51,912 bases of DNA. It comes from an uncultured Gammaproteobacteria bacterium (lineage in GTDB: Bacteria > Patescibacteriota > Microgenomatia > PFEM01 > JAPLYW01). The stretch spans positions 1-51,912 of the forward strand of contig CAZJJY010000001.1 of NCBI GenBank assembly GCA_964546445.1, read 5' to 3'. Position numbers and translations under genes: made by a program. Shown here piece after piece: positions 12,229 to 24,577 of the stretch. How positions within the stretch are numbered: position 1 is the stretch's first letter; each line of letters starts with the position of its first letter. The notes beneath the pieces are model-generated. The model was given only the letters and a program-made list of their open reading frames with translations, made no database searches and was not told the origin of the DNA.

Positions 12229-13209
12229 ATGAATATTAGATTAAATAAAGAAAAAGAAATTAAACAAGAAGAACTAATTAAAGAAGACAAGCCAAAAAGA
12301 AAAAGAAAAAAACAACCTCCCAAAGGAAGTCGTTGGACAATAGTTGTCGCTTTCTTTTTAAGCTTAGGAATTATCGCCATTTTTTATTTACAGAAAGAGT
12401 TTCCTTTATTTTGGGAAAAGGTCACTTCTCCTTTGGTTATTAGCAATCTTTCAAAAGAAGAAAAATTTGATGCTAGTTCGGTTTTATCAGAAATTAAAGA
12501 TTTGACCAAAGACCTTCGTGGTAGTTATGGAGTTTATGTTTATAGAATGGATGATAGAAAAGAATATGGTCTTAATCAAGATAAGATTTTTCCAGCGGCT
12601 TCTTTGATGAAATTACCAGTGATGATTACTTTGTATCAGAAGGTAGAAACGGGGAAGGTTGATTTAGAAACAAAATATATTTTAAAAGAAAAAGACAAGA
12701 GAACAGGGGCGGGTATTTTGCAAAATAGAACTGTTGGCTCTTCTTATTCTTATCGAGAATTAGCTGAGTTAATGGGCCATTATTCTGACAACACAGCCTT
12801 TTTTGTTTTAAGAAATATTTTGACTGATCAAGAAATTCAAAAAACAGTTTTTGATTTAGGTATGAAAGAAACGTCATTAAGGGATTTTGAGACAACACCA
12901 AAAGATATGGGGTTTCTTTTCCGAGAGCTTTTTAAAGGGAATATTTTAAATAATAGAAATCGTGATGAGATATTGTCTTTCTTAACTGATACTGTCTTTG
13001 AAGATTGGATACCTCAAGGAGTTCCTGAGGGAACTAAAGTTTCTCATAAAATTGGTCAAGATTTAGGAACTTTTTCAGATGGGGGAATTATTTTCGCTTC
13101 TCGCCCTTTTGTTTTAATAATAATGTCTAGCAATTCAAGACAAAAAGAAGTGAATAATATTTTACCTGAGATTACAAAGAGGGTGTGGGTTTTTGAGAAT
13201 CCTCAATAA
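12229..13209 (+). CDS. Class A beta-lactamase-like serine hydrolase, membrane-anchored
   Basis: Lys-rich N-terminus plus one TM helix. SxxK in AASLMKLP, SDN in YSDNTA, and a KTG-like HKIG. Confidence 0.65.
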   Translation: MNIRLNKEKEIKQEELIKEDKPKRKRKKQPPKGSRWTIVVAFFLSLGIIAIFYLQKEFPLFWEKVTSPLVISNLSKEEKFDASSVLSEIKDLTKDLRGSYGVYVYRMDDRKEYGLNQDKIFPAASLMKLPVMITLYQKVETGKVDLETKYILKEKDKRTGAGILQNRTVGSSYSYRELAELMGHYSDNTAFFVLRNILTDQEIQKTVFDLGMKETSLRDFETTPKDMGFLFRELFKGNILNNRNRDEILSFLTDTVFEDWIPQGVPEGTKVSHKIGQDLGTFSDGGIIFASRPFVLIIMSSNSRQKEVNNILPEITKRVWVFENPQ

Positions 13210-15517
13210 TCTTTTTAATTTCTTCTGCATTGCAATGAGTTTTAGGTTCAGTTCCTGGTAAAAATAATTCCCATTTGGTTGGGCAGCCATTACAGGGTAG
13301 GGTGTTGGTTAAAGAACAAACCTGGATTTTTCGAAGATCTTTTGGTTGGTTAAATTCCTTATCAGGAATATCTTTTAGAAGATAGGTCATCGTTTTATTC
13401 CAAATAGGAGAAGCTCCAGTTACTCCTGAAGCGACATAGCTCATCGGGGTATTATCATTATTACCAACCCAAGTAGCGACTAAATAATCAACAGTATAAC
13501 CGATTGTCCAGTTATCTCTTTGGTTTTGGGTTGTCCCTGTCTTAACGGCCACATGAGAATGATCTTTAATATTCAATAAAGAGGAAGGTCCAAAAGCAGG
13601 TGTTCGGGCTCGGTTATCAGATAAAATATCAGTTAGAAGATAGGCAATATTGGCTGGTAAAACTTTTTGGGGTTTTAAATTATCTTTTTGACTTTCAATT
13701 ATTTCACCTTTGTAGTTTTTAATTTCTAAAATTGGGTTAAGGTTTGCCTTTGAACCTAAATTAGCTAAAGTTCCATAGACGACAGCCAAATCAATCATTC
13801 TTATTTCTCCTCCACCTAGAGTTAAAGATAATCCAAAACGACTAGGATCATCCCAACTGGTAATACCCATTTTTTGCCCCATTTCAATCATTTGTTCTAC
13901 ACCTAAAGCCGAAAGGACCTTAACAGCAGGGATATTATAAGAAGAAGCTAGAGCGGTACGGAGAGTAACGTTGCCGTGGAAGCGATTATCATAGTTCTTA
14001 GGACTGTAAGGTTCGGTTCCTGGTAGAAAGTAGGTAATAGGTGTATCGGGGATAATAGTGGCTGGGGTAAAACCGTTTTGTAAAGCGACAGCATAGTTTA
14101 TTGGTTTAATGGCTGATCCTGGTTGTCTTAAACTTAGAGTAACGTTAACATTGCCGTCATTTTCTTCTGAAAAATAATCTCTAGAACCAACCATGGCTAA
14201 GATCTCTCCATTTTGAGGATTAGTGACTAAAGCTGCTCCATTACCGATTTTCAGACGGTTTAGTTGGTTAATTTCCTGGGTCACTATTTCTTGGGTTTTT
14301 TGATGGATTTCTAAATCTAGAGAAGTCGTAACTTCTAACCCTCCTTCTTCAATCATCCTTTCCCCATATTTCTGAGACAAGAACTCTTTGACATACATGA
14401 CAAAATGGGGAGCTTCAATATTAGTTTTCTGAGGAACAAATTTAATTTCTTTTCTGACTGCCTCTTCTTCTTGTTCTGGAGTAATAAAACCTTCCTGGCG
14501 CATTCTTCCTAAAACTATTTTTTGCCTTTCTTTAGCTAATTTGGGGAAAGCTCCAAAAGGGGAATAAGTAGTTGGAGAAGCAGGTAATCCAGCTAATAAA
14601 GCAGCCTCAGTTAGGGTTAACTCCTCAACGCTTTTATCAAAATATATTTGTGAAGCTTCTTCGATTCCGTAAGTAGCCCCGCCATAACCAACTTCATTTA
14701 GGTACATTTGTAATATTTCATCCTTAGAAAATTTAATTTCAACCATGATAGCTAAAATAAATTCTCTAATTTTTCTTTTTAATGTTCTTTCGGGAGTGAG
14801 CAAGGCATTTTTAACCAATTGTTGAGTAATTGTTGAACCTCCATAAAGCTTTTTTCCTTTAAGATTTGTCAAGACAGCTCTGAAAATGCCTTTGGGGGAA
14901 AAACCATGATGTTGATAGAATTCAGCGTCTTCAATGGCAATGGTAGCTTGAATTAGATGTAAAGGAACCTCTTGAAGATCGATTAGAGTTCTGTTTTGCC
15001 CACGATAGATTTTATATAAAAGATTTCCATTTCGGTCATATATTTTAGTAGAAACAATTTGATTCCTGGTTATTAATTTATTGGGGTTAGGAAGACCTTT
15101 TAAGATAAAAAAATAGGTTAAGAAGCCAAGAACAAGAATAAAAAGAATGGTAAAAATGGTAATAATCTTTTTCGTAGAGAGTTTAAAAAGAGATTTAAAA
15201 GAGAAAAGTAATTTTAAAGATAATTGTTTTATTTTATGAGGCCATCTAGGGAAGAGAACAACCGTTTTTTTCTTTGATTTCTTTCTTCTTTCGATTTTTA
15301 TCTCTATCCCAATTTTAGGGAGCCTTAATTTACGTTTTTTCCCTTTCTTCTTCTGCCCTTCTTTAATTAAAGAAGGAATCTTTTTAAGAAGATTAAAAAG
15401 ATAGCCTAAGAAAATAATGACTATTAAGAATAGCCAATAAAAGGGTTTTCCAATTTTTTCTAAAATTAAGGGCAAGGATTTTAGAGGATTGAAGGTTCCT
15501 GTCCTTTTACCTTCCAT
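13172..15517 (-). CDS. Class A penicillin-binding protein (PBP1A-type transglycosylase/transpeptidase), copy 1
   Basis: 781-aa ORF. GT51 motifs EDAEFYQHHGF, GGSTITQQL and RKIREF; transpeptidase motifs SAIKP (SxxK), SYN and KTGT. N-terminal TM anchor with a Lys-rich tail. Confidence 0.9.
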   Translation of the reverse strand: MEGKRTGTFNPLKSLPLILEKIGKPFYWLFLIVIIFLGYLFNLLKKIPSLIKEGQKKKGKKRKLRLPKIGIEIKIERRKKSKKKTVVLFPRWPHKIKQLSLKLLFSFKSLFKLSTKKIITIFTILFILVLGFLTYFFILKGLPNPNKLITRNQIVSTKIYDRNGNLLYKIYRGQNRTLIDLQEVPLHLIQATIAIEDAEFYQHHGFSPKGIFRAVLTNLKGKKLYGGSTITQQLVKNALLTPERTLKRKIREFILAIMVEIKFSKDEILQMYLNEVGYGGATYGIEEASQIYFDKSVEELTLTEAALLAGLPASPTTYSPFGAFPKLAKERQKIVLGRMRQEGFITPEQEEEAVRKEIKFVPQKTNIEAPHFVMYVKEFLSQKYGERMIEEGGLEVTTSLDLEIHQKTQEIVTQEINQLNRLKIGNGAALVTNPQNGEILAMVGSRDYFSEENDGNVNVTLSLRQPGSAIKPINYAVALQNGFTPATIIPDTPITYFLPGTEPYSPKNYDNRFHGNVTLRTALASSYNIPAVKVLSALGVEQMIEMGQKMGITSWDDPSRFGLSLTLGGGEIRMIDLAVVYGTLANLGSKANLNPILEIKNYKGEIIESQKDNLKPQKVLPANIAYLLTDILSDNRARTPAFGPSSLLNIKDHSHVAVKTGTTQNQRDNWTIGYTVDYLVATWVGNNDNTPMSYVASGVTGASPIWNKTMTYLLKDIPDKEFNQPKDLRKIQVCSLTNTLPCNGCPTKWELFLPGTEPKTHCNAEEIKKIIEDSQKPTPSL
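14783..14842. repeat. 60-nt tract identical to 17312-17371 (PBP paralogue 1)
   Basis: Base-by-base comparison gives tgttctttcgggagtgagcaaggcatttttaaccaattgttgagtaattgttgaacctcc in both genes. It encodes GGSTITQQLVKNALLTPERT. Confidence 0.9.
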
Positions 15518-15526
15518 GCTTCGTTA

Positions 15527-17755
15527 TTATATTCCTTCTTCGGTTTGGTTTGAAGGTGTAGTTATCTCAAAGGTAGGGAGGCTATCAACTCTAATAATTG
15601 TTGGTTCGGTTGGAAAGATACAATCGAGACAAAATGGTGTTTGCAAAGGATCATAGATAACTTGATGTTCTTGTAATTCCTTGTTTTCAGGGGGTGTTTT
15701 ATCGGTCGCTAATTGTCCAGTAGTTTTATCTATTTCAATAAAGGTTTTTGTGTTTTCTATTTCTGTTGGAAGGGTATCTTGAATAAAATATTCGAATCTT
15801 GTCTCACAGGGGCTATCAGGATTAGGTAATTTCCCGGAGATGTTACAAACTGATAGGCCAACAATACCCTGAGGTTTTAAAGGCCAAGATTCTTCCCTAT
15901 CTTTTAGAGCATAAGAAACAATTTTATTCCAAATAGGAGAAGCTCCAGTCACCCCTGAAGCGACGTAACTCATCGGGGTATTATCATTATTGCCAACCCA
16001 AGTGGCGACCAGTATTTCGTTGTTATAACCAATTGTCCAGTTATCACGACGATCATTGGTTGTTCCTGTTTTAACAGAGATTTCGGGATGTCCTTTGACA
16101 TTCAAGTAAGAAGATGGTCCAAAAGCGGCCGTCCTAGCGTTGTTATCCAAAAGCATGTGAGAAACAAGATAAGCGGCTTCCATAGATAAGACTCTTGGTC
16201 CTTCATCTTCTTTTCTTTCATAGAGGGTGTTCCCTTTAGAGTTTTCGACTTTTTGCAGAGCCCAGATATCTTGTCTAATACCTAAGTTAGCAAAGGAAGA
16301 AAAAGCAGTCGCCATATCGATCATTCTAACTTCACCTCCACCTAGAGTTAAGGATAATCCATAATTTTTAGGATCTTTAAAAGTTGAGATACCCATTTCT
16401 CGAGCTTTTTGAACAAATTCTTCAACTCCATTAATGGCCAAGACTTTAACGGCGGGAATATTATAAGAGTTGCCTAGATCAAACCTTATTTGTGTTGGAC
16501 CGTGGAATGTTCCATCATAATTAACGGGGCAGTAAAGCTTTTGTCCAGCAACAGAAAAACAGGTAGGGACATCATTTATAGGGGTGGTGAGAGTAATCAA
16601 TCTTCTGTCTAGGGCGAACCCGTAGTTAAGTGGTTTAATAGACGATCCAGGTTGACGAGACATCAAAGTGACGTTAACATTACCATCAATATCTTCGTCA
16701 AAGTAGTCTTTGGAGCCAATCATGGCCAAAATTTCTCCTGTTTTAGGGTTGGTGGCTAAGGCAGCTCCATTACTAATTTTAAGTCTTTCTAGTTTGGCGA
16801 CCTCGGAAGCAATTGTTTGTTGGGCAAAATCTTGTAAGTCTAAGTCTAGAGTGGTAGTTACTTTTAGACCTCCTTCTTCGACCATTCTCTCTCCATATTT
16901 TTCTACCAATAATCCCTTGATATACAAAACAAAGTGAGGAGCTTTAATACCAATACTAGCTTGGGCGAATTCTAATTCTTCCTCTTGAGCTTTTTTAGCT
17001 TCTTCTTCAGAGATATAACCATCTTCAACCATTCTTTGTAAGACTCTTTCTTGCCTTTCTTTAGCTAAGTGTGGATAAGCCCCGAAGGGGGAAAAACGAG
17101 TTGGAGAAGCAGGTAAACCAGCTAGTAAAGCAGCTTCAGATAAACTTAAATCTTTAACATTTTTGTCAAAGTAAGTTTGCGAAGCTGTTTCAATACCCCA
17201 GGCAGTTCCTCCATAGGGAATTTGATTTAGATACATTCCCAAAATAGTATCCTTACTATAAATAATTTCAGCAAAGTAGGTCAGAATAAATTCTCTTACT
17301 TTTCTTTTAATTGTTCTTTCGGGAGTGAGCAAGGCATTTTTAACCAATTGTTGAGTAATTGTTGAACCTCCTTGGAGAGTTTGTTTAAAGATAATGTTAT
17401 AAGAGGCTCTCAAAATTCCTCCAAAATCAAAACCATGGTGTTGATAGAAGTTTCTGTCTTCTGAGGCGAGGGTTGCCCATTTAACATAATCGGGAACTTC
17501 TTCAAGTTTAATGGGAGTACGGTTTTTATCAGCATATATTTCATAAAGTAATTCTCCGTTGCGATCAAAAATTAAAGTAGAAGCAGGAAACGTTGAAGAA
17601 CCCAAACGAGTAGGGGAAGGAAGATCATAAAAGATGTAAAAAGAAAAGATAATTAACAGAGAAAGAGTGCCAACTAAAATTTTACGTCTTTTTAAGAAAT
17701 TAATAAATTTGTTTTCAGTAATCTTAATACTTTTTTTCTTTTTCATAGGTTGCAA
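15527..17755 (-). CDS. Class A penicillin-binding protein (PBP1A-type), copy 2
   Basis: 742-aa ORF with EDRNFYQHHGF, GGSTITQQL, SSIKP, SYN and KTGT. It sits in tandem with copy 1, separated by 9 nt. Confidence 0.9.
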   Translation of the reverse strand: MQPMKKKKSIKITENKFINFLKRRKILVGTLSLLIIFSFYIFYDLPSPTRLGSSTFPASTLIFDRNGELLYEIYADKNRTPIKLEEVPDYVKWATLASEDRNFYQHHGFDFGGILRASYNIIFKQTLQGGSTITQQLVKNALLTPERTIKRKVREFILTYFAEIIYSKDTILGMYLNQIPYGGTAWGIETASQTYFDKNVKDLSLSEAALLAGLPASPTRFSPFGAYPHLAKERQERVLQRMVEDGYISEEEAKKAQEEELEFAQASIGIKAPHFVLYIKGLLVEKYGERMVEEGGLKVTTTLDLDLQDFAQQTIASEVAKLERLKISNGAALATNPKTGEILAMIGSKDYFDEDIDGNVNVTLMSRQPGSSIKPLNYGFALDRRLITLTTPINDVPTCFSVAGQKLYCPVNYDGTFHGPTQIRFDLGNSYNIPAVKVLAINGVEEFVQKAREMGISTFKDPKNYGLSLTLGGGEVRMIDMATAFSSFANLGIRQDIWALQKVENSKGNTLYERKEDEGPRVLSMEAAYLVSHMLLDNNARTAAFGPSSYLNVKGHPEISVKTGTTNDRRDNWTIGYNNEILVATWVGNNDNTPMSYVASGVTGASPIWNKIVSYALKDREESWPLKPQGIVGLSVCNISGKLPNPDSPCETRFEYFIQDTLPTEIENTKTFIEIDKTTGQLATDKTPPENKELQEHQVIYDPLQTPFCLDCIFPTEPTIIRVDSLPTFEITTPSNQTEEGI
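17312..17371. repeat. 60-nt tract identical to 14783-14842 (PBP paralogue 2)
   Basis: Same 60-mer as in copy 1. A second shared block, 13393-13480 versus 15922-16009, matches at 82 of 88 nt. Confidence 0.9.
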
Positions 17756-19420: not shown

Positions 19421-21688
19421 ATGGCTAAAAAAGATAAACCAAAAAATTATCCTAGTTTTGAGTGGAGTGAACAAGCACTCACCGTTTTAAAGGAAAGATA
19501 TTTAATAAAAAATCCTAAAGGGGAGGCTATAGAAAGCCCAGAAGGGATGTGTTATAGAGTGGCTAAAAGAATCGCCTCGGCCGAAAAAAGCTTTAAAACT
19601 TCTCCTAAAGAAATAGAAAAAATAACCAAAGATTTTTATGAAATGATTGGTAAGAAATGGTTCTTACCAAATTCACCAACATTAATGAATGCTGGAAGAG
19701 ATGATAATTTACAGTATTCTGCCTGTTTTGTTTTACCTATCTATGATTCTATTGTTGGTATTTTTGATGCTTTAAAAGGAGCGGCTTTAATTCATAAATC
19801 AGGTGGAGGAACAGGTTTTGATTTTTCTTCTTTAAGGCCTAAGGGAAGTTTTGTCGGTTCGACTAGAGGAGTGGCTTCAGGCCCAATTTCTTTTATGAGA
19901 ATCTTTGACGCTTCTACAGCTGAAGTTAAACAAGGTGGAATGAGAAGAGGAGCGAATATGGGTATTTTACGCGTTGATCATCCAGATATTTTAGAATTTA
20001 TTGACTGTAAAGCTGAGGGAGGGATTACTAATTTTAATATTTCTGTTGGCGTCGATGATAAATTTATGAGAGCAGCTTCAAAGAAAGGAACTTATTGGCT
20101 AATTGACCCTGCAAATAAGAAGAAGATAAAAAAGCTTAAAGCTAAAGAAGTTCTTGATAAGATTATAGAAAGAGCCTGGCAATCAGGAGATCCAGGCTTA
20201 ATTTTCTTAACTCCAATTAACAAAGGTCCGGCTAACCCTGTTCCTTCCATGGGCCCAATCAGTGCAACCAATCCATGTGGTGAACAGCCATTATATTCTA
20301 ACGAGGCTTGTAATTTAGGAAGTATTAATCTTTCCTTAATGATAAAGAAAAACAAAAAAGATGTTGATTGGGATTTGTTGGAAAAAATTACTCGTTTATC
20401 TACAAGATTTTTAGATAATGTTATTGAAATAAATAATTTCCCCCTAGAAGAAATCAATAAAGTTGTGAAACTTAATCGTCGGATTGGTTTAGGAGTTATG
20501 GGTTGGGCAGATTTACTTTTCCAAATGGAAATTCCTTATAACTCACCAAAAGCCTATCAATTAGGACAGAAAATTATGAAATTTATCAAGAAAACTTCTC
20601 ACGATGAGAGTCAAAAACTGGCCAAAGATAGAGGTCCTTTCCCTAATTTCTCAAAAAGTATTTATAAAAAAGGAGCTCCTTTAAGAAATGCAACCTTAAC
20701 AACCATTGCTCCAACGGGTTCTTTATCCATTATCGCCGGTTGTTCTTCGGGAATAGAACCGCTTTTTGCTCTTGCTTTTAAGCATAAAGCAAATGACAGG
20801 GAATTAACTTTCTTTAATCCTCGTTTCCTTGAAGCAGCAGAAAAATATAAGTTAGACAAAGAAATTTTAGATAATATTGAAAAAGCAGGTTCTTTAGAAA
20901 AAGCTGATGTTCCAGAAAAGCTCAAAAAAGTTTTTATTATTGCCCACCAGGTTGATTGGAAGGGTCATATTGATACCCAAGCTGCTTTCCAAAAAGGAGT
21001 TGATAATGCTGTTTCAAAAACTATTAATTTACCCTTTGAAGCCGATATAAAAGAGGTGGCTAAGGCTTATCTTTATGCTCATAAAAAAGGTTGTTTAGGT
21101 ATTACCGTTTATCGTGATGGTTGTAAAGAAACTCAGGTTTTATATGCCGGTAAAGGAAAAGAACAAAAAGATAAAGAAATTGAACTTAAGATGAAAGCTA
21201 GGCCAGGGGTCATTTCTGGTAAAACTTATCGTATTGAAACACCAGTAGGAACAGCTTATGTTGTCATTAACACAACCGAAGGAGAGCCTTTTGAAATTTT
21301 TGTTAATGTTGGTAAAGCAGGTTCTGATATTGCCGCTGATGCAGAAGCGATCGGACGCTTGGTTTCTTTAAATCTTAGGTTAGGATTTAATTTTTCTTCA
21401 AGAGATGTCTTAGAGCAAATTGTTGATCAACTAGAAGGTATTGGTGGGGGAGAAAGTGTTGGTTTTGGTAAGGACAGAATTCTTTCTTTGGCTGATGGAG
21501 TAGCTAAATCCTTAAAAGAATATTTAATTGGACCTCAGAACGAAGAAGCTTCTCAAGTTGGAGAACAAACAAGTCTTTTGAACGGAACTAAGAAACGTCG
21601 TGATCTTTGTCCTTCCTGTGGTAGAGCGAGTCTGATTTATGAAGAAGGTTGCGCAAAATGCCTCTATTGTGGTTTCAATAAGTGCTAA
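19421..21688 (+). CDS. nrdJ: Class II (adenosylcobalamin-dependent) ribonucleotide reductase
   Basis: 755-aa ORF with the catalytic-Cys context NPCGEQPL, TVYRDGC and a C-terminal 4-Cys knuckle CPSCG...CAKCLYCG. Confidence 0.9.
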   Translation: MAKKDKPKNYPSFEWSEQALTVLKERYLIKNPKGEAIESPEGMCYRVAKRIASAEKSFKTSPKEIEKITKDFYEMIGKKWFLPNSPTLMNAGRDDNLQYSACFVLPIYDSIVGIFDALKGAALIHKSGGGTGFDFSSLRPKGSFVGSTRGVASGPISFMRIFDASTAEVKQGGMRRGANMGILRVDHPDILEFIDCKAEGGITNFNISVGVDDKFMRAASKKGTYWLIDPANKKKIKKLKAKEVLDKIIERAWQSGDPGLIFLTPINKGPANPVPSMGPISATNPCGEQPLYSNEACNLGSINLSLMIKKNKKDVDWDLLEKITRLSTRFLDNVIEINNFPLEEINKVVKLNRRIGLGVMGWADLLFQMEIPYNSPKAYQLGQKIMKFIKKTSHDESQKLAKDRGPFPNFSKSIYKKGAPLRNATLTTIAPTGSLSIIAGCSSGIEPLFALAFKHKANDRELTFFNPRFLEAAEKYKLDKEILDNIEKAGSLEKADVPEKLKKVFIIAHQVDWKGHIDTQAAFQKGVDNAVSKTINLPFEADIKEVAKAYLYAHKKGCLGITVYRDGCKETQVLYAGKGKEQKDKEIELKMKARPGVISGKTYRIETPVGTAYVVINTTEGEPFEIFVNVGKAGSDIAADAEAIGRLVSLNLRLGFNFSSRDVLEQIVDQLEGIGGGESVGFGKDRILSLADGVAKSLKEYLIGPQNEEASQVGEQTSLLNGTKKRRDLCPSCGRASLIYEEGCAKCLYCGFNKC

Positions 21689-21740: not shown

Positions 21741-22106
21741 ATGGCACTGCCCTCAAAGGAAAGTTTTGTTTATAAAGATGAAGGAATAAAAAAAGCTCCT
21801 GTAGTTGAAATTGCAATTTCCCCTGAAGTTCCTGAAGTTGAACAAAGCGAATATATCAAAGAGATTAATAAAGAGGTTAGATTAAAGGAGCCCGTTAGGG
21901 ATGGGACAGGTTTGATTGTCATGAATAATCCCAGCCCTAAAAAGGTAAAAATTGTCTTATCTTTGACAGAGCAAGAAATGAACAAAGCTTTACATTTAAA
22001 AGTTATTTATTCTATTCGATGGTTAGCAGAAGTAATTAAAAGGTTAATGAAAATAGCGAGTGGGACAGTTGAATATCATTATAGAATGCAGGAACAAGGA
22101 ACTTAG
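21741..22106 (+). CDS. Hypothetical protein, coupled to the downstream ATPase
   Basis: 121-aa ORF with no recognisable motif. Its stop is 3 nt before the ATG at 22110. Confidence 0.3.
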   Translation: MALPSKESFVYKDEGIKKAPVVEIAISPEVPEVEQSEYIKEINKEVRLKEPVRDGTGLIVMNNPSPKKVKIVLSLTEQEMNKALHLKVIYSIRWLAEVIKRLMKIASGTVEYHYRMQEQGT

Positions 22107-22109
22107 ATT

Positions 22110-24446
22110 ATGCAACAGACAGAAACTTTGATTTCTAGTTTACAACAAGGAGTGATTTCTTTGTTGATCATTCTCCTTAGCCTAGTTATTTTGTTTATAT
22201 TAGGCTATATTTTTATTTTATGGTGGCGTCATCATAGTCGAGAGGAAAATTCTTTAGATTATGTTTTGCTTCAAGTAGTCGTTCCTTTTGATAATGAAAT
22301 AAAAATTGATGCGGCTGAGCAAATGTTTGCCTCTTTATTTTCGATGAAAAAAGGTGGTATGTTGAGTTTTTTACGTTTGCAACCACATATATCTTTTGAA
22401 ATTGTTGCCAAACACGAAGATATTCATTTTTATATTTCTGTTCCTCTTAAATTAAAAGATATGTTAGAGAAGCAAATTAACGGTGCTTATCCCGATGCAG
22501 AAATTCAAGAAGTACCTGAATATAATCTTTTTTCTACCGGTGGAAGAGTTGCTTTTGCCGAGTATGAATTAAAACAAGCTGCCTACCACCCAATTAAACT
22601 TTATAAAGACCTTCCGACAGATCCTTTATCCTCGATAACAACGGCTTTATCAAAAATGGGTCCTGAAGAAGGAGCCGCTATCCAAATTTTAGTTTCCCCA
22701 GCCGATAAGAAATGGCGAACTTTAGGTAAAAGTTATATTGCTTCTACTAAAAAGTCAGAGTCAGATCCTTCCAAAGCTAAGTTTAAAGTTGATGGAAAAG
22801 CTTTAGAAGCGATTGAAAACAAGTGTAGCAAACCTGGATTTAATACAAATATTAGAGTTGTTGTTTCTTCGCCAACAGAAGAAATGGCCAATGTTCATTT
22901 AAGTAACATTAAATCATCTTTTGAACAATTTTCCTCTGATTTAAACAGTTTTGGTAAAAGAAAAATTTGGTGGAAAACTGGTTTTATGGTTGATTTTATT
23001 TATCGTTATCAGCCAATTCTCAGATGGGGTGGCAATAAGACTGTTCTGAACTCTGAAGAGTTGGCCACAGTTTTCCATTTTCCCAATAAACAGATAGAAA
23101 CTCCTCATATTAATTGGCTTTATTCTAAAAGAGCTCCAGCACCAATCAAAATATCGAAAGAGGGTTTGTATCTAGGTAAGAGTAATTACAGAGGAGTAAC
23201 CAGGCCTGTTCATATTTCAGAAGAAGATAGGCAGAAGCATCTTTATGTTATAGGAAAAACAGGGACAGGGAAGACAGAACTTTTAAAGGATATGATTCTC
23301 CAAGATATTAGAGAAGGAAAAGGAGTTTGTTTAATTGATCCCCATGATTTAGCTGAAGATTTATTAGCTCATATCCCACCAGAAAGAGCAGAGGACGTTA
23401 TTTATTTTGATCCTTCTGATACAGAAAGGCCAATAGGTTTAAATCTTCTTGAAGCGGAAACTGAAGATCAAAAACATATGATCACCACGGCCATTATTAA
23501 CTTGATGTATAAGCTTTATGATCCTTATAAAACCGGTATTATTGGTCCTCGTTTTGAACACGCTGTTCGTAATGCGATGCTGACAGTTATGAGTGAAAAG
23601 GGTAATACCTTTATTGAAGTAGTCCGTTGTTTGACTGACTCTAATTTTGTACAAGAATTACTGCCTAAGGTTAAAGATCCTATTATTGCCAGATATTGGA
23701 CAGATCAAATTGCCCAAACATCTGATTTTCATAAGTCTGAAGTTCTTGATTATATTGTTTCTAAATTTGGAAGATTTGTAACCAACAAAGCGATGAGAAA
23801 TATCATCGGTCAATCAAAATCGTCTTTTGATTTTAGAAAAGTTATGGATGAAGGCAAGATTTTAATTATTAATTTAGCTAAAGGGAAAATAGGAGAGGAA
23901 AATTCTAATTTCCTAGGTTTAATTCTTATTCCTAAAATATTAGCTGCAGCCATGTCTCGATCTGATGTTCCCGAAGAACAAAGAAAAGATTTTTACTTGT
24001 ATGTTGATGAGTTTCAAAACTTTGCTACTCCTGACTTTGCTCAAATTTTATCTGAGGCAAGAAAATTTCATCTTAATTTAACTGTCGCTAATCAGTTTAT
24101 TGGACAAATGGATGAAGAAATTAAAAATGCTATTTTTGGTAATATTGGAACTTTGGTTACCTTTAGAGTTGGGGTAACTGATGCCAGCTATTTGCAGAGA
24201 GAATTTCAACCAGTTTTTGGTGAAGATGATTTATTGAATATAGATAGATTTAATGTTTATATCAAAACAATTGTTAAAAATGAACCAGTTCCAGCCTTTT
24301 CTATGGATTTAACCAAAGATATGGAACAGATGAAGAAACTAGAGAATCCTAAACTAGCCGAAATGATAAAAGAATTATCTAGATTGAAGTATGGTGTTGA
24401 CAGGGAAGTGGTAGAAGTGGAAATCAACCAGCGAGCTAGACTTTAA
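22110..24446 (+). CDS. Membrane-anchored VirD4/TraD/TraG-like (type IV coupling protein-like) P-loop ATPase
   Basis: 778-aa ORF. One N-terminal TM helix, then ~330 aa of unassigned domain, then Walker A GKTGTGKT, Walker B FYLYVDEFQNF and a VANQFIGQ glutamine motif typical of coupling-protein ATPases. Confidence 0.65.
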   Translation: MQQTETLISSLQQGVISLLIILLSLVILFILGYIFILWWRHHSREENSLDYVLLQVVVPFDNEIKIDAAEQMFASLFSMKKGGMLSFLRLQPHISFEIVAKHEDIHFYISVPLKLKDMLEKQINGAYPDAEIQEVPEYNLFSTGGRVAFAEYELKQAAYHPIKLYKDLPTDPLSSITTALSKMGPEEGAAIQILVSPADKKWRTLGKSYIASTKKSESDPSKAKFKVDGKALEAIENKCSKPGFNTNIRVVVSSPTEEMANVHLSNIKSSFEQFSSDLNSFGKRKIWWKTGFMVDFIYRYQPILRWGGNKTVLNSEELATVFHFPNKQIETPHINWLYSKRAPAPIKISKEGLYLGKSNYRGVTRPVHISEEDRQKHLYVIGKTGTGKTELLKDMILQDIREGKGVCLIDPHDLAEDLLAHIPPERAEDVIYFDPSDTERPIGLNLLEAETEDQKHMITTAIINLMYKLYDPYKTGIIGPRFEHAVRNAMLTVMSEKGNTFIEVVRCLTDSNFVQELLPKVKDPIIARYWTDQIAQTSDFHKSEVLDYIVSKFGRFVTNKAMRNIIGQSKSSFDFRKVMDEGKILIINLAKGKIGEENSNFLGLILIPKILAAAMSRSDVPEEQRKDFYLYVDEFQNFATPDFAQILSEARKFHLNLTVANQFIGQMDEEIKNAIFGNIGTLVTFRVGVTDASYLQREFQPVFGEDDLLNIDRFNVYIKTIVKNEPVPAFSMDLTKDMEQMKKLENPKLAEMIKELSRLKYGVDREVVEVEINQRARL

Positions 24447-24488: not shown

Positions 24489-24561
24489 GGGCCAGTAACT
24501 CAGTGGTTAGAGTGTTATCCTTATAAGATAAAAGTCGATGGTTCGATTCCATCCTGGCCCA
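24489..24561 (+). tRNA. tRNA-Ile, anticodon UAU
   Basis: Hand-folded cloverleaf: acceptor GGGCCAG/CTGGCCC, D stem ACTC/GAGT, anticodon stem TTATC/GATAA, loop CTTATAA (anticodon TAT at 24522-24524), T stem GATGG/CCATC with a TTCGATT loop, discriminator A. No encoded CCA. Confidence 0.85.
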
Positions 24562-24577
24562 CTTAAATTTCTTCATT

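Follow-up and report, generated by a model that had tools for sequence, protein, structure and literature searches.

Type IV coupling proteins (T4CPs) such as TrwB of plasmid R388, VirD4, TraD, DotL and Cag-beta have in common a RecA-like nucleotide-binding domain (NBD) with Walker A and Walker B motifs, an all-alpha domain inserted into it and an N-terminal anchor, and canonical T4CPs usually have two transmembrane (TM) helices. The VirB4 ATPases of type IV secretion systems (T4SSs), represented by TrwK/VirB4 of R388 (PDB 7o42, 7o43 and 8rtd), are built of an N-terminal alpha/beta domain and a C-terminal ATPase. The protein analysed here is a membrane-anchored ATPase of 778 aa, encoded next to a small protein of 121 aa in a 51,912-nt stretch of DNA (the window: contig CAZJJY010000001.1 of assembly GCA_964546445.1, positions 1 to 51,912). 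As judged from sequence profiles and structure models, it is a core T4CP of Patescibacteria, of the subclass that carries the domain DUF8128 as its N-terminal head. Unlike TrwB, VirD4, TraD, DotL and Cag-beta, it has a single TM helix rather than two, a further VirB4-like domain of about 310 aa between this anchor and the NBD, and no linked relaxase or T4SS genes. It shares the two-domain plan of TrwK/VirB4 and differs from it in its own TM helix, its T4CP-like motor sequence and a head without sequence similarity. On balance, albeit with considerable reserve, it is taken to be a T4CP that has been domesticated and passed on vertically, that has a docking head in the style of VirB4 as well as a small partner, and that probably serves the chromosomal T4SS.

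Patescibacteria depend on host cells, and to our knowledge no T4SS before their chromosomal one had been shown to be essential for its own carrier bacterium. In the survey of Quinonero-Coronel et al. (2025, Microb Genom, PMC12102498), the Patescibacteria T4SS was described as MPF-FATA-derived, as located near dnaA and as nearly devoid of relaxases; 5,713 VirD4-type T4CP homologues were counted in 2,918 genomes, 148 of them near virB4, VirB3-VirB4 fusions were mentioned, and exaptation of the T4CP was raised as an option by the authors. This class of genes, its location apart from virB4 and the scarcity of relaxases were already known from that survey, and DUF8128 was known as a Pfam family. 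The window gene is an ordinary representative of this catalogued class, being likewise a chromosomal, relaxase-less T4CP gene far from the dnaA-proximal virB4 cluster, to which useful refinements are added here. The N-terminal domain, its VirB4-like fold, the small partner and the NrdJ/Xer/DivIC synteny are not described in the survey, and a single T4CP copy was found in the window genome, compared with about two per genome in the survey. The VirB4-like head and its combination with a coupling protein motor, the universality of the family, its link to plasmids of Bacillus and haloarchaea and the partner with a Trp-bearing helix and its fusions were not found in the searchable literature.

Coupling protein-type motor of the ATPase

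The features of the ATPase gene are given below, with the invariance of motif residues scored over an alignment of 70 relatives.

22110-24446, + strand: membrane-anchored coupling protein-type ATPase, DUF8128-T4CP, 778 aa (profiles, AlphaFold2 (AF2) model, Foldseek)
22149-22223, + strand: single TM helix, about residues 14-38, followed by RHHSREE (hydropathy segment 5-41; AF2 helix 2-41)
22233-23165, + strand: N-terminal domain, residues 42-352, with an alpha/beta fold like that of the VirB4 N-terminal domain (PF26449 on homologues; models)
23166-24443, + strand: T4CP-type NBD, residues 353-778 (TrwB_AAD_bind)
23253-23276, + strand: Walker A GKTGTGKT, residues 382-389 (G382, T384, G385, G387 and K388 invariant)
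23463-23807, + strand: all-alpha domain inserted in the NBD, residues 452-566 (helices alone between the Walker A and Walker B strands in the AF2 model)
23991-24023, + strand: Walker B FYLYVDEFQNF, residues 628-638 (D633, E634, F635, Q636 and N637 invariant)
24084-24107, + strand: VANQFIGQ motif, residues 659-666 (N661, Q662 and Q666 invariant)

The single N-terminal TM helix, the three motifs and the assignment to coupling proteins rather than to FtsK or HerA, all of which had been claimed in an initial annotation made from the DNA letters, were borne out. Pfam TrwB_AAD_bind was matched above threshold over residues 369-688 (31.5 bits versus a cut-off of 20.5), TraG-D_C was just under its cut-off (20.1 versus 22 bits), and DUF87 and FtsK_SpoIIIE were also sub-threshold. 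Partial matches to SXT_TraD, TOL_TraD and the CD1115 VirD4-like family were obtained in NCBIfam, below the equivalog and subfamily cut-offs. TrwB ranked first when PDB sequences were searched with the 778-aa protein, and DotL (3.6e-6) and TrwB (7.9e-6) were the top matches of the family profile, which matched no VirB4. The inserted all-alpha domain was very strongly conserved (YWTDQIAQT..FHKSE..Y..SKFGRF), its invariant columns including W530, H541, K542, S543, E544, Y548, S551, K552, F553 and F556, and the dN/dS of the whole gene versus close relatives was 0.04, which indicates very strong conservation. The protein has the intact Walker A and Walker B motifs in an NBD, the TrwB_AAD_bind profile, the all-alpha insert and the N-terminal anchor by which T4CPs are recognized, and lacks their genetic association with relaxase and/or mating-pair-formation genes. 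By the positive-inside rule, and given where the ATPase lies in the protein, the N-terminal domain and the ATPase are probably cytoplasmic.

The same searches bear on a role as a substitute for the DNA translocase FtsK at the septum, acting with the neighbouring Xer recombinase. Like FtsK, the protein is a member of the FtsK/HerA superfamily; it is membrane-anchored, and in many loci its gene lies close to those of Xer and DivIC. However, a bona fide FtsK is encoded on another contig of the genome (C3; 698-aa frame, PF01580 at 215.7 bits), whereas the window protein reached 14.6-16 bits with FtsK_SpoIIIE, below the cut-off of 24, and such a substitution is scarcely credible.

VirB4-like fold of the N-terminal domain

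About 330 residues following the TM helix had at first been left without a family. An extra domain of unknown function, of about 310 aa, is indeed present, but it is catalogued: the identical protein and every close homologue carry the precomputed annotation PF26449 (DUF8128), a Pfam family of unknown function. When residues 42-355 were used as the query, 2,253 representative clusters were obtained with the domain N-terminal in every case, and T4CP-type ATPase domains were present in the full-length DUF8128 members tested that had any Pfam match. Two long proteins (P0230, 1,706 aa; P0269, 1,422 aa) carry DUF8128 at the start, and their remaining residues, at least 1,000 in number, gave no Pfam match, an ATPase included. 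The head also matched phrog_5156 (an 824-position profile of unknown function, E 2.5e-31), and DUF8128 relatives therefore occur on sequences classed as phage.

The fold was compared by using two models. The AF2 model of the whole protein, made with 70 diverse sequences as input, had a pLDDT of 88.7 and a pTM of 0.75; its top Foldseek match was full-length TrwK/VirB4 of R388 (E 4e-16, about 870 aligned columns), followed by TrwB (E 3e-12, about 430 columns, TMt about 0.6, rmsd about 5 A) and then by HerA and Cag-beta. The head was isolated by modelling the ATPase-free N-terminal fragment of a relative (L075), in which the pLDDT of the domain was above 90. A Foldseek search of this region, as the initial annotation had suggested, gave TrwK/VirB4 chains exclusively as significant matches when done with the L075 fragment (n=14, E 9e-7 to 3e-4, probability 1.00, about 370 aligned columns), and the next-ranked matches had E above 2e-3 and low probability. 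As far as these models and profiles go, the DUF8128-T4CP family is a VirB4-type head on a coupling protein motor, because the head fold matches VirB4 while the motor sequence profiles match T4CPs.

The structural matches also raise the reading that the protein is a second VirB4-like energising ATPase, a VirB4 paralogue with the small 5' gene as its VirB3. Full-length TrwK/VirB4 is the best structural match, the head matches VirB4 alone, and the small 5' gene with its occasional N-terminal fusion resembles the VirB3-VirB4 layout. The motor profiles, however, are those of T4CPs (TrwB_AAD_bind, TraD, CD1115, DotL, TrwB), and VirB4 profiles fail on the 778-aa protein: TIGR00929 gave 14.3 bits versus a cut-off of 643.1, and CagE_TrbE_VirB, P-loop_TraG and AAA_10 gave no match. 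In an hhalign comparison with the VirB4 of the same genome, the P-loop region alone aligned, with a probability of 24%. Moreover, the small protein lacks a TM segment and does not resemble PrgI/VirB3, and a canonical VirB4 with a PrgI partner is already encoded in the genome. A VirB4 paralogue is therefore improbable on these grounds.

The hybrid architecture of VirB4 head and T4CP motor bears on the evolution of coupling proteins. A bolder proposal, which is speculative and seems unlikely to hold in full, is that the DUF8128 ATPases would be a distinct third branch of VirB4/VirD4 motors, in which a coupling protein motor has retained a VirB4-type docking head, and would thus represent a living stage between VirB4 and the coupling proteins derived from it. 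In Patescibacteria they would then have become a vertically inherited core machine with a small Trp-helix partner of its own, at least partly independent of conjugation. Such a machine might, for example, gate the entry of host macromolecules by way of the essential T4SS or next to it.

Small upstream partner gene

The two ORFs and the gap of 3 nt between them, as initially annotated, agree with the ORF table.

21741-22106, + strand: small partner gene, 121 aa (ORF table; iterated HMM; dN/dS)
21957-22058, + strand: conserved core, residues 73-106, LSLTEQEMNKALHLKVIYSIRWLAEVIKRLMKIA, within which lies a predicted amphipathic helix with W94
22096-22101, + strand: AAGGAA, a Shine-Dalgarno-like hexamer 8 nt 5' of the ATPase ATG, within the end of the small ORF

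The small ORF stops with TAG at 22104-22106 and the ATPase gene starts with ATG at 22110, and with the hexamer this spacing suggests translational coupling of the two genes. Scans for promoters and terminators gave counts no higher than those in shuffled sequences, and no terminator-like site in the gaps that set nrdJ and the ATPase gene apart from the small ORF; the structure of the operon is therefore not informed by them.

The N-terminal half of the small protein is rich in Lys, Glu, Val and Pro and is poorly conserved, and the C-terminal core is conserved. W94 is the sole invariant residue besides M1 (alignment A4), within the motif RWLAE..(K/L)R..K, and residues 87-104 are strongly amphipathic (hydrophobic moment 0.66). 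Searches of Pfam, NCBIfam, PHROGs and PDB sequences yielded no relative of the small protein, and no TM segment was detected. Values of dN/dS versus close relatives were 0.27, 0.22 and 0.07, from which it follows that the small ORF is a real coding gene under purifying selection; at the protein level it evolves about 6 times faster than the ATPase. Genes of 115, 118 and 111 aa are annotated at its place in relatives by gene callers.

The conservation of the pair was followed in 80 related loci with 46-74% identity, in which the small-ORF family was detected by tblastn and then by an iterated HMM. Homologues lay directly 5' of the T4CP gene in 43 loci and in 5 others in which the T4CP is cut by the contig end (48/80); with one further match about 800 nt 5' in locus L035, the total is about 49/80. 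The pairing claimed in the initial annotation is thus upheld by these loci, by purifying selection and by two in-frame fusions, and the other loci have no detectable homologue; most of them have a short 5' ORF, several of which are rich in Pro, Gln and Glu and end in a basic stretch containing Trp or Phe. In some close relatives (L092:3116-3598 and L094:3138-3620), an extra gene of 160 aa without Pfam match is located just 5' of the small ORF, and it is absent from the window.

The fusions were seen in L075 (846 aa) and in the Saccharibacteria-labelled L076 (913 aa). In both, the ATPase has no TM helix, and the partner helix is fused in frame: a Pro-rich stretch and an 'RWL....R..KKL' helix stand immediately before the head in place of the TM helix. 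These natural fusions support a physical association of the small protein with the ATPase, and the 121-aa protein is accordingly regarded as its putative physical partner, a suggestion drawn from sequence. Docking of the fused helix from the L075 model was set aside for its low pLDDT of 60-72. By analogy, VirB3 with VirB4 and CagZ with Cag-beta (PDB 8dol) likewise have a small gene immediately 5' of the ATPase gene that encodes a presumed binder, and N-terminal fusion occurs occasionally in VirB3-VirB4 as in the pair of the window type. The small protein of the window has no sequence or profile similarity to VirB3 or CagZ and lacks a TM segment, and the likeness is one of arrangement only. The partner, fused in some lineages, offers a concrete and testable protein-protein interaction.

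Distribution of the DUF8128-T4CP family

Patescibacteria were sampled with 301 genomes of at least 80% completeness from 248 genera. The DUF8128 profile was matched in 301/301 genomes and 248/248 genera, mostly with 2-3 copies per genome. Of these 301 genomes, 291 also had the VirB4-type P-loop_TraG family. Outside the phylum, 57 plasmids were found by tblastn of the head at 25-28% identity over the full domain; 13 were from Bacillus and at least 30 were haloarchaeal, with Natrinema, Haladaptatus, Halomontanus, Haloterrigena, Halorubrum and others as the hosts.

On the plasmid NZ_OX419581 of B. subtilis NRS6116, the protein WP_144625398.1 (913 aa) has matches to DUF8128, DUF87, FtsK and TrwB_AAD_bind and is encoded directly 5' of a 'replication-relaxation family' gene. 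Genes like those of TcpC/D/E, an 854-aa AAA_10 VirB4 and an M23 peptidase are located nearby. From this context it follows that DUF8128-T4CPs are a genuine subclass of conjugative coupling proteins of monoderm elements, and the context agrees with the MPF-FATA derivation that has been proposed for the T4SS of Patescibacteria. Unlike the window protein, the plasmid protein has no TM helix and its gene has no small-ORF homologue 5' of it. A protein of Halorubrum plasmid pHLAC01 (WP_012660318.1, 1,276 aa) has the same head and a T4CP-type ATPase, and its 21-kb neighbourhood contains mainly transposases.

The proposal that the N-terminal domain is a specificity element is not sustained by this distribution, since the domain is not lineage-specific, being present in all 301 genomes and in plasmid T4CPs of Bacillus and haloarchaea. 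In view of the VirB4-like fold, the presence throughout the phylum and the plasmid T4CPs, a docking or assembly role is likelier than substrate specificity.

Chromosomal T4SS cluster of the window genome

The window is contig C1 of a 588-kb genome (63 contigs, estimated 95% complete). A T4SS-like cluster was found on contig C6 (13697-20081, minus strand), beside dnaN, dnaA, rnpA and yidC. In transcribed order it encodes a PrgI-family (VirB3-like) protein of 316 aa, a protein of 277 aa, a VirB4-like ATPase of 610 aa, a protein of 932 aa and a protein of 343 aa with a single TM segment. The VirB4-like ATPase (P-loop_TraG 102 bits, AAA_10 45 bits) was the sole VirB4-type match genome-wide. The 932-aa protein, in which several TM segments are clustered at about residues 493-630 and an M23 peptidase forms the C-terminal part, may be a fusion of a VirB6-like channel with a cell-wall hydrolase, as far as its sequence suggests. 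This arrangement agrees with the layout published for Patescibacteria (PMC12102498).

The ATPase had been described in the initial annotation as an orphan, a view against which a T4SS elsewhere in the genome was to count. With the cluster on C6 it is not an orphan in its genome, which tells in part against that view, and its arrangement is the published norm of the phylum; none of four relaxase families was matched in the genome, and any functional link to the cluster is putative. The separation from secretion genes did hold, with no VirB4 within 8 kb in 78/80 related loci. The whole-genome scans also agree with the claim that VirB4 and relaxase genes are missing from the window; VirB6 and pilin genes, named in the same claim, were given no separate window scan.

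Comparison with Southlakia epibionticum

Transposon insertion sequencing (Tn-seq) data are available for S. epibionticum ML1 (Wang et al. 2023, Cell, PMC10633639, Table S1), in which the T4SS genes SEML1_0006-0010 were scored GD/ES/ES. A second T4CP-like gene, SEML1_0142 ('TraM recognition domain', 1,019 aa), was essential at T0 already (ES/ES/ES), and SEML1_0141 (139 aa), which ends 12 nt 5' of it, was scored GD/ES/ES with no insertions (PMC10633639). The published statement that the Southlakia t4cp is non-essential concerns another gene only, SEML1_0293 (921 aa).

The best Saccharibacterial match to the window protein was L076, the 913-aa fused form. In one Saccharibacteria-labelled genome, the paralogue nearest to the window protein was likewise the fused form without TM helix (916-aa frame, E 8e-113), and the second DUF8128 paralogue (869 aa) was distant and had no small 5' ORF of the window's family. 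The counterpart of the window protein is therefore probably of the SEML1_0293 type, judged by the length and the fused architecture of the best Saccharibacterial match and by these two alone, and the essential SEML1_0141/0142 probably represent a different paralogue with another small partner. With the window pair they share a small gene before a T4CP-like ATPase gene outside the T4SS cluster, which is a likeness by analogy only. A protein of 1,024 aa (P0149) was tried as a proxy for SEML1_0142 and rejected, its 5' gene being unrelated and giving no match to the small-ORF HMM.

Proposed role of the ATPase and its partner

The DUF8128-T4CP family is the obvious candidate motor for bringing substrates to the Patescibacteria T4SS. 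In R388, the N-terminal domain of VirB4 docks to VirB3 and VirB8, and a VirB4-like head could explain docking despite the location of the gene outside the T4SS cluster. In the proposed mechanism, the 778-aa protein would form a membrane-bound hexamer, which the VirB4-style head would dock to the inner-membrane part of the chromosomal T4SS, and ATP hydrolysis would feed the substrate to the channel. Since no relaxase was found, a protein or an unprocessed nucleic acid would be a likelier cargo than a relaxase-DNA complex. The Trp-bearing amphipathic helix of the 121-aa protein would sit at the membrane-proximal N-terminal edge of the head, a placement suggested by its replacement of the TM helix in the natural fusions, and the small protein would act as a membrane-proximal tether or adaptor, for which its poorly conserved N-terminal half could serve.

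Several results weigh against this role. The relation of the head to VirB4 is visible in structure alone and has no support at the sequence level: hhalign of the head versus the own-genome VirB4 and the 277-aa protein upstream of that VirB4 gave probabilities below 1%, and the best match of the head profile (A3) in PDB sequences was to cold-shock proteins (E 0.7). The fused partner helix had a pLDDT of 60-72 in the L075 model, by which its docking site is not established. No match to PF03432, PF01076, PF02486 or PF13814 (Relaxase, Mob_Pre, Rep_trans and Replic_Relax) was obtained in the whole genome, in which no substrate, relaxase or adaptor was identifiable. There is no operon-level link to the T4SS, since VirB4 was within 8 kb in 2/80 loci. 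Co-occurrence is no test of a dependence on the T4SS, because both families are near-universal. Finally, SEML1_0293, the probable counterpart, was scored NE/NE/NE, non-essential, while the T4SS cluster was essential (PMC10633639, PMC12102498).

Some of these points bear on an exapted membrane translocase that is independent of the T4SS, in which the ATPase and its small partner would move DNA, nucleotides or protein for a core task such as the uptake of host material, or for a function linked to DNA metabolism or division as the NrdJ/Xer/DivIC neighbourhood may suggest. The gene lies away from virB4 within a housekeeping block, its dN/dS is as low as 0.04, and exaptation has been raised before (PMC12102498). 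DUF8128 is present in 301/301 genomes and VirB4 in 291/301, with a few 100%-complete genomes among those without a VirB4 match, and the different DUF8128-type pair SEML1_0141/0142 is scored essential, its ATPase at T0 already, more stringently than the T4SS genes. However, no alternative channel partner was identified, most of the 10 genomes without VirB4 are fragmented or have relatives in the same family that do possess it, and the Xer/DivIC synteny may be mere core-genome order; on the B. subtilis plasmid inspected, the closest relatives outside the phylum lie in a bona fide conjugation module. A stand-alone translocase is accordingly considered possible but rather doubtful, and the domesticated T4CP that serves the chromosomal T4SS is preferred.

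Gene order and inheritance of the locus

The flanks of the pair are as had been annotated, with nrdJ on one side and a tRNA and rarA on the other.

19421-21688: nrdJ (755 aa, no intein), ending 52 nt 5' of the small ORF
24489-24562: tRNA-Ile with a genomically encoded UAU anticodon, directly 3' of the ATPase gene (ARAGORN)

On the 5' side, two class-A penicillin-binding proteins (PBPs), a CAAX protease, a DUF5667 protein and NrdJ are encoded. On the 3' side, tRNA-Ile(UAU), RarA/MgsA, a 288-aa Xer-type recombinase and DivIC are followed by two tRNA-Met, TrpS and FtsH. Among the 80 related loci, NrdJ was 5' in 21, the Xer-type recombinase 3' in 35 and DivIC present in 23.

The order of T4CP gene, tRNA-Ile(UAU), RarA and tyrosine recombinase could be taken as the footprint of an integrated conjugative element (ICE), of which the locus would be a remnant. 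This is highly improbable: the block keeps its gene order in many lineages of Microgenomatia, the family occurs throughout the phylum, and the recombinase is a Xer-type housekeeping enzyme beside divIC. The GC content of the locus (0.34-0.35) is the same as that of the flanks, and no att-like direct repeats of the tRNA end were found, just imperfect AT-rich chance matches. The uniform GC content, the lack of such repeats and the conserved synteny together point to vertical inheritance in a housekeeping block, not to a mobile element.

Homologues of the 778-aa protein are labelled Shapirobacteria, Woesebacteria and Patescibacteria. Many contigs with a Patescibacteria-type gene (L004, L005, L055 and others) are labelled Gammaproteobacteria, Pseudomonadales, Nevskiaceae, Bathyarchaeia or Limisphaerales, and these are probably mis-binned or mislabelled contigs of metagenome-assembled genomes.

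The class-A PBPs of the window (781 and 742 aa, transglycosylase plus transpeptidase) are encoded in tandem at 13172-17755, in a genome of only 588 kb. In a close relative (L091:139-3597; T4CP 94% identical), NrdJ has 1,152 aa and contains an intein with a LAGLIDADG endonuclease. In L094 and L095 (T4CP 81% identical), an rve-family integrase takes the place of NrdJ 5' of the pair (L094:2063-3067) and a 369-aa TIR-domain protein takes that of RarA 3' of the T4CP gene (L094:6490-7599), so that both sides of the conserved pair are variable spots.

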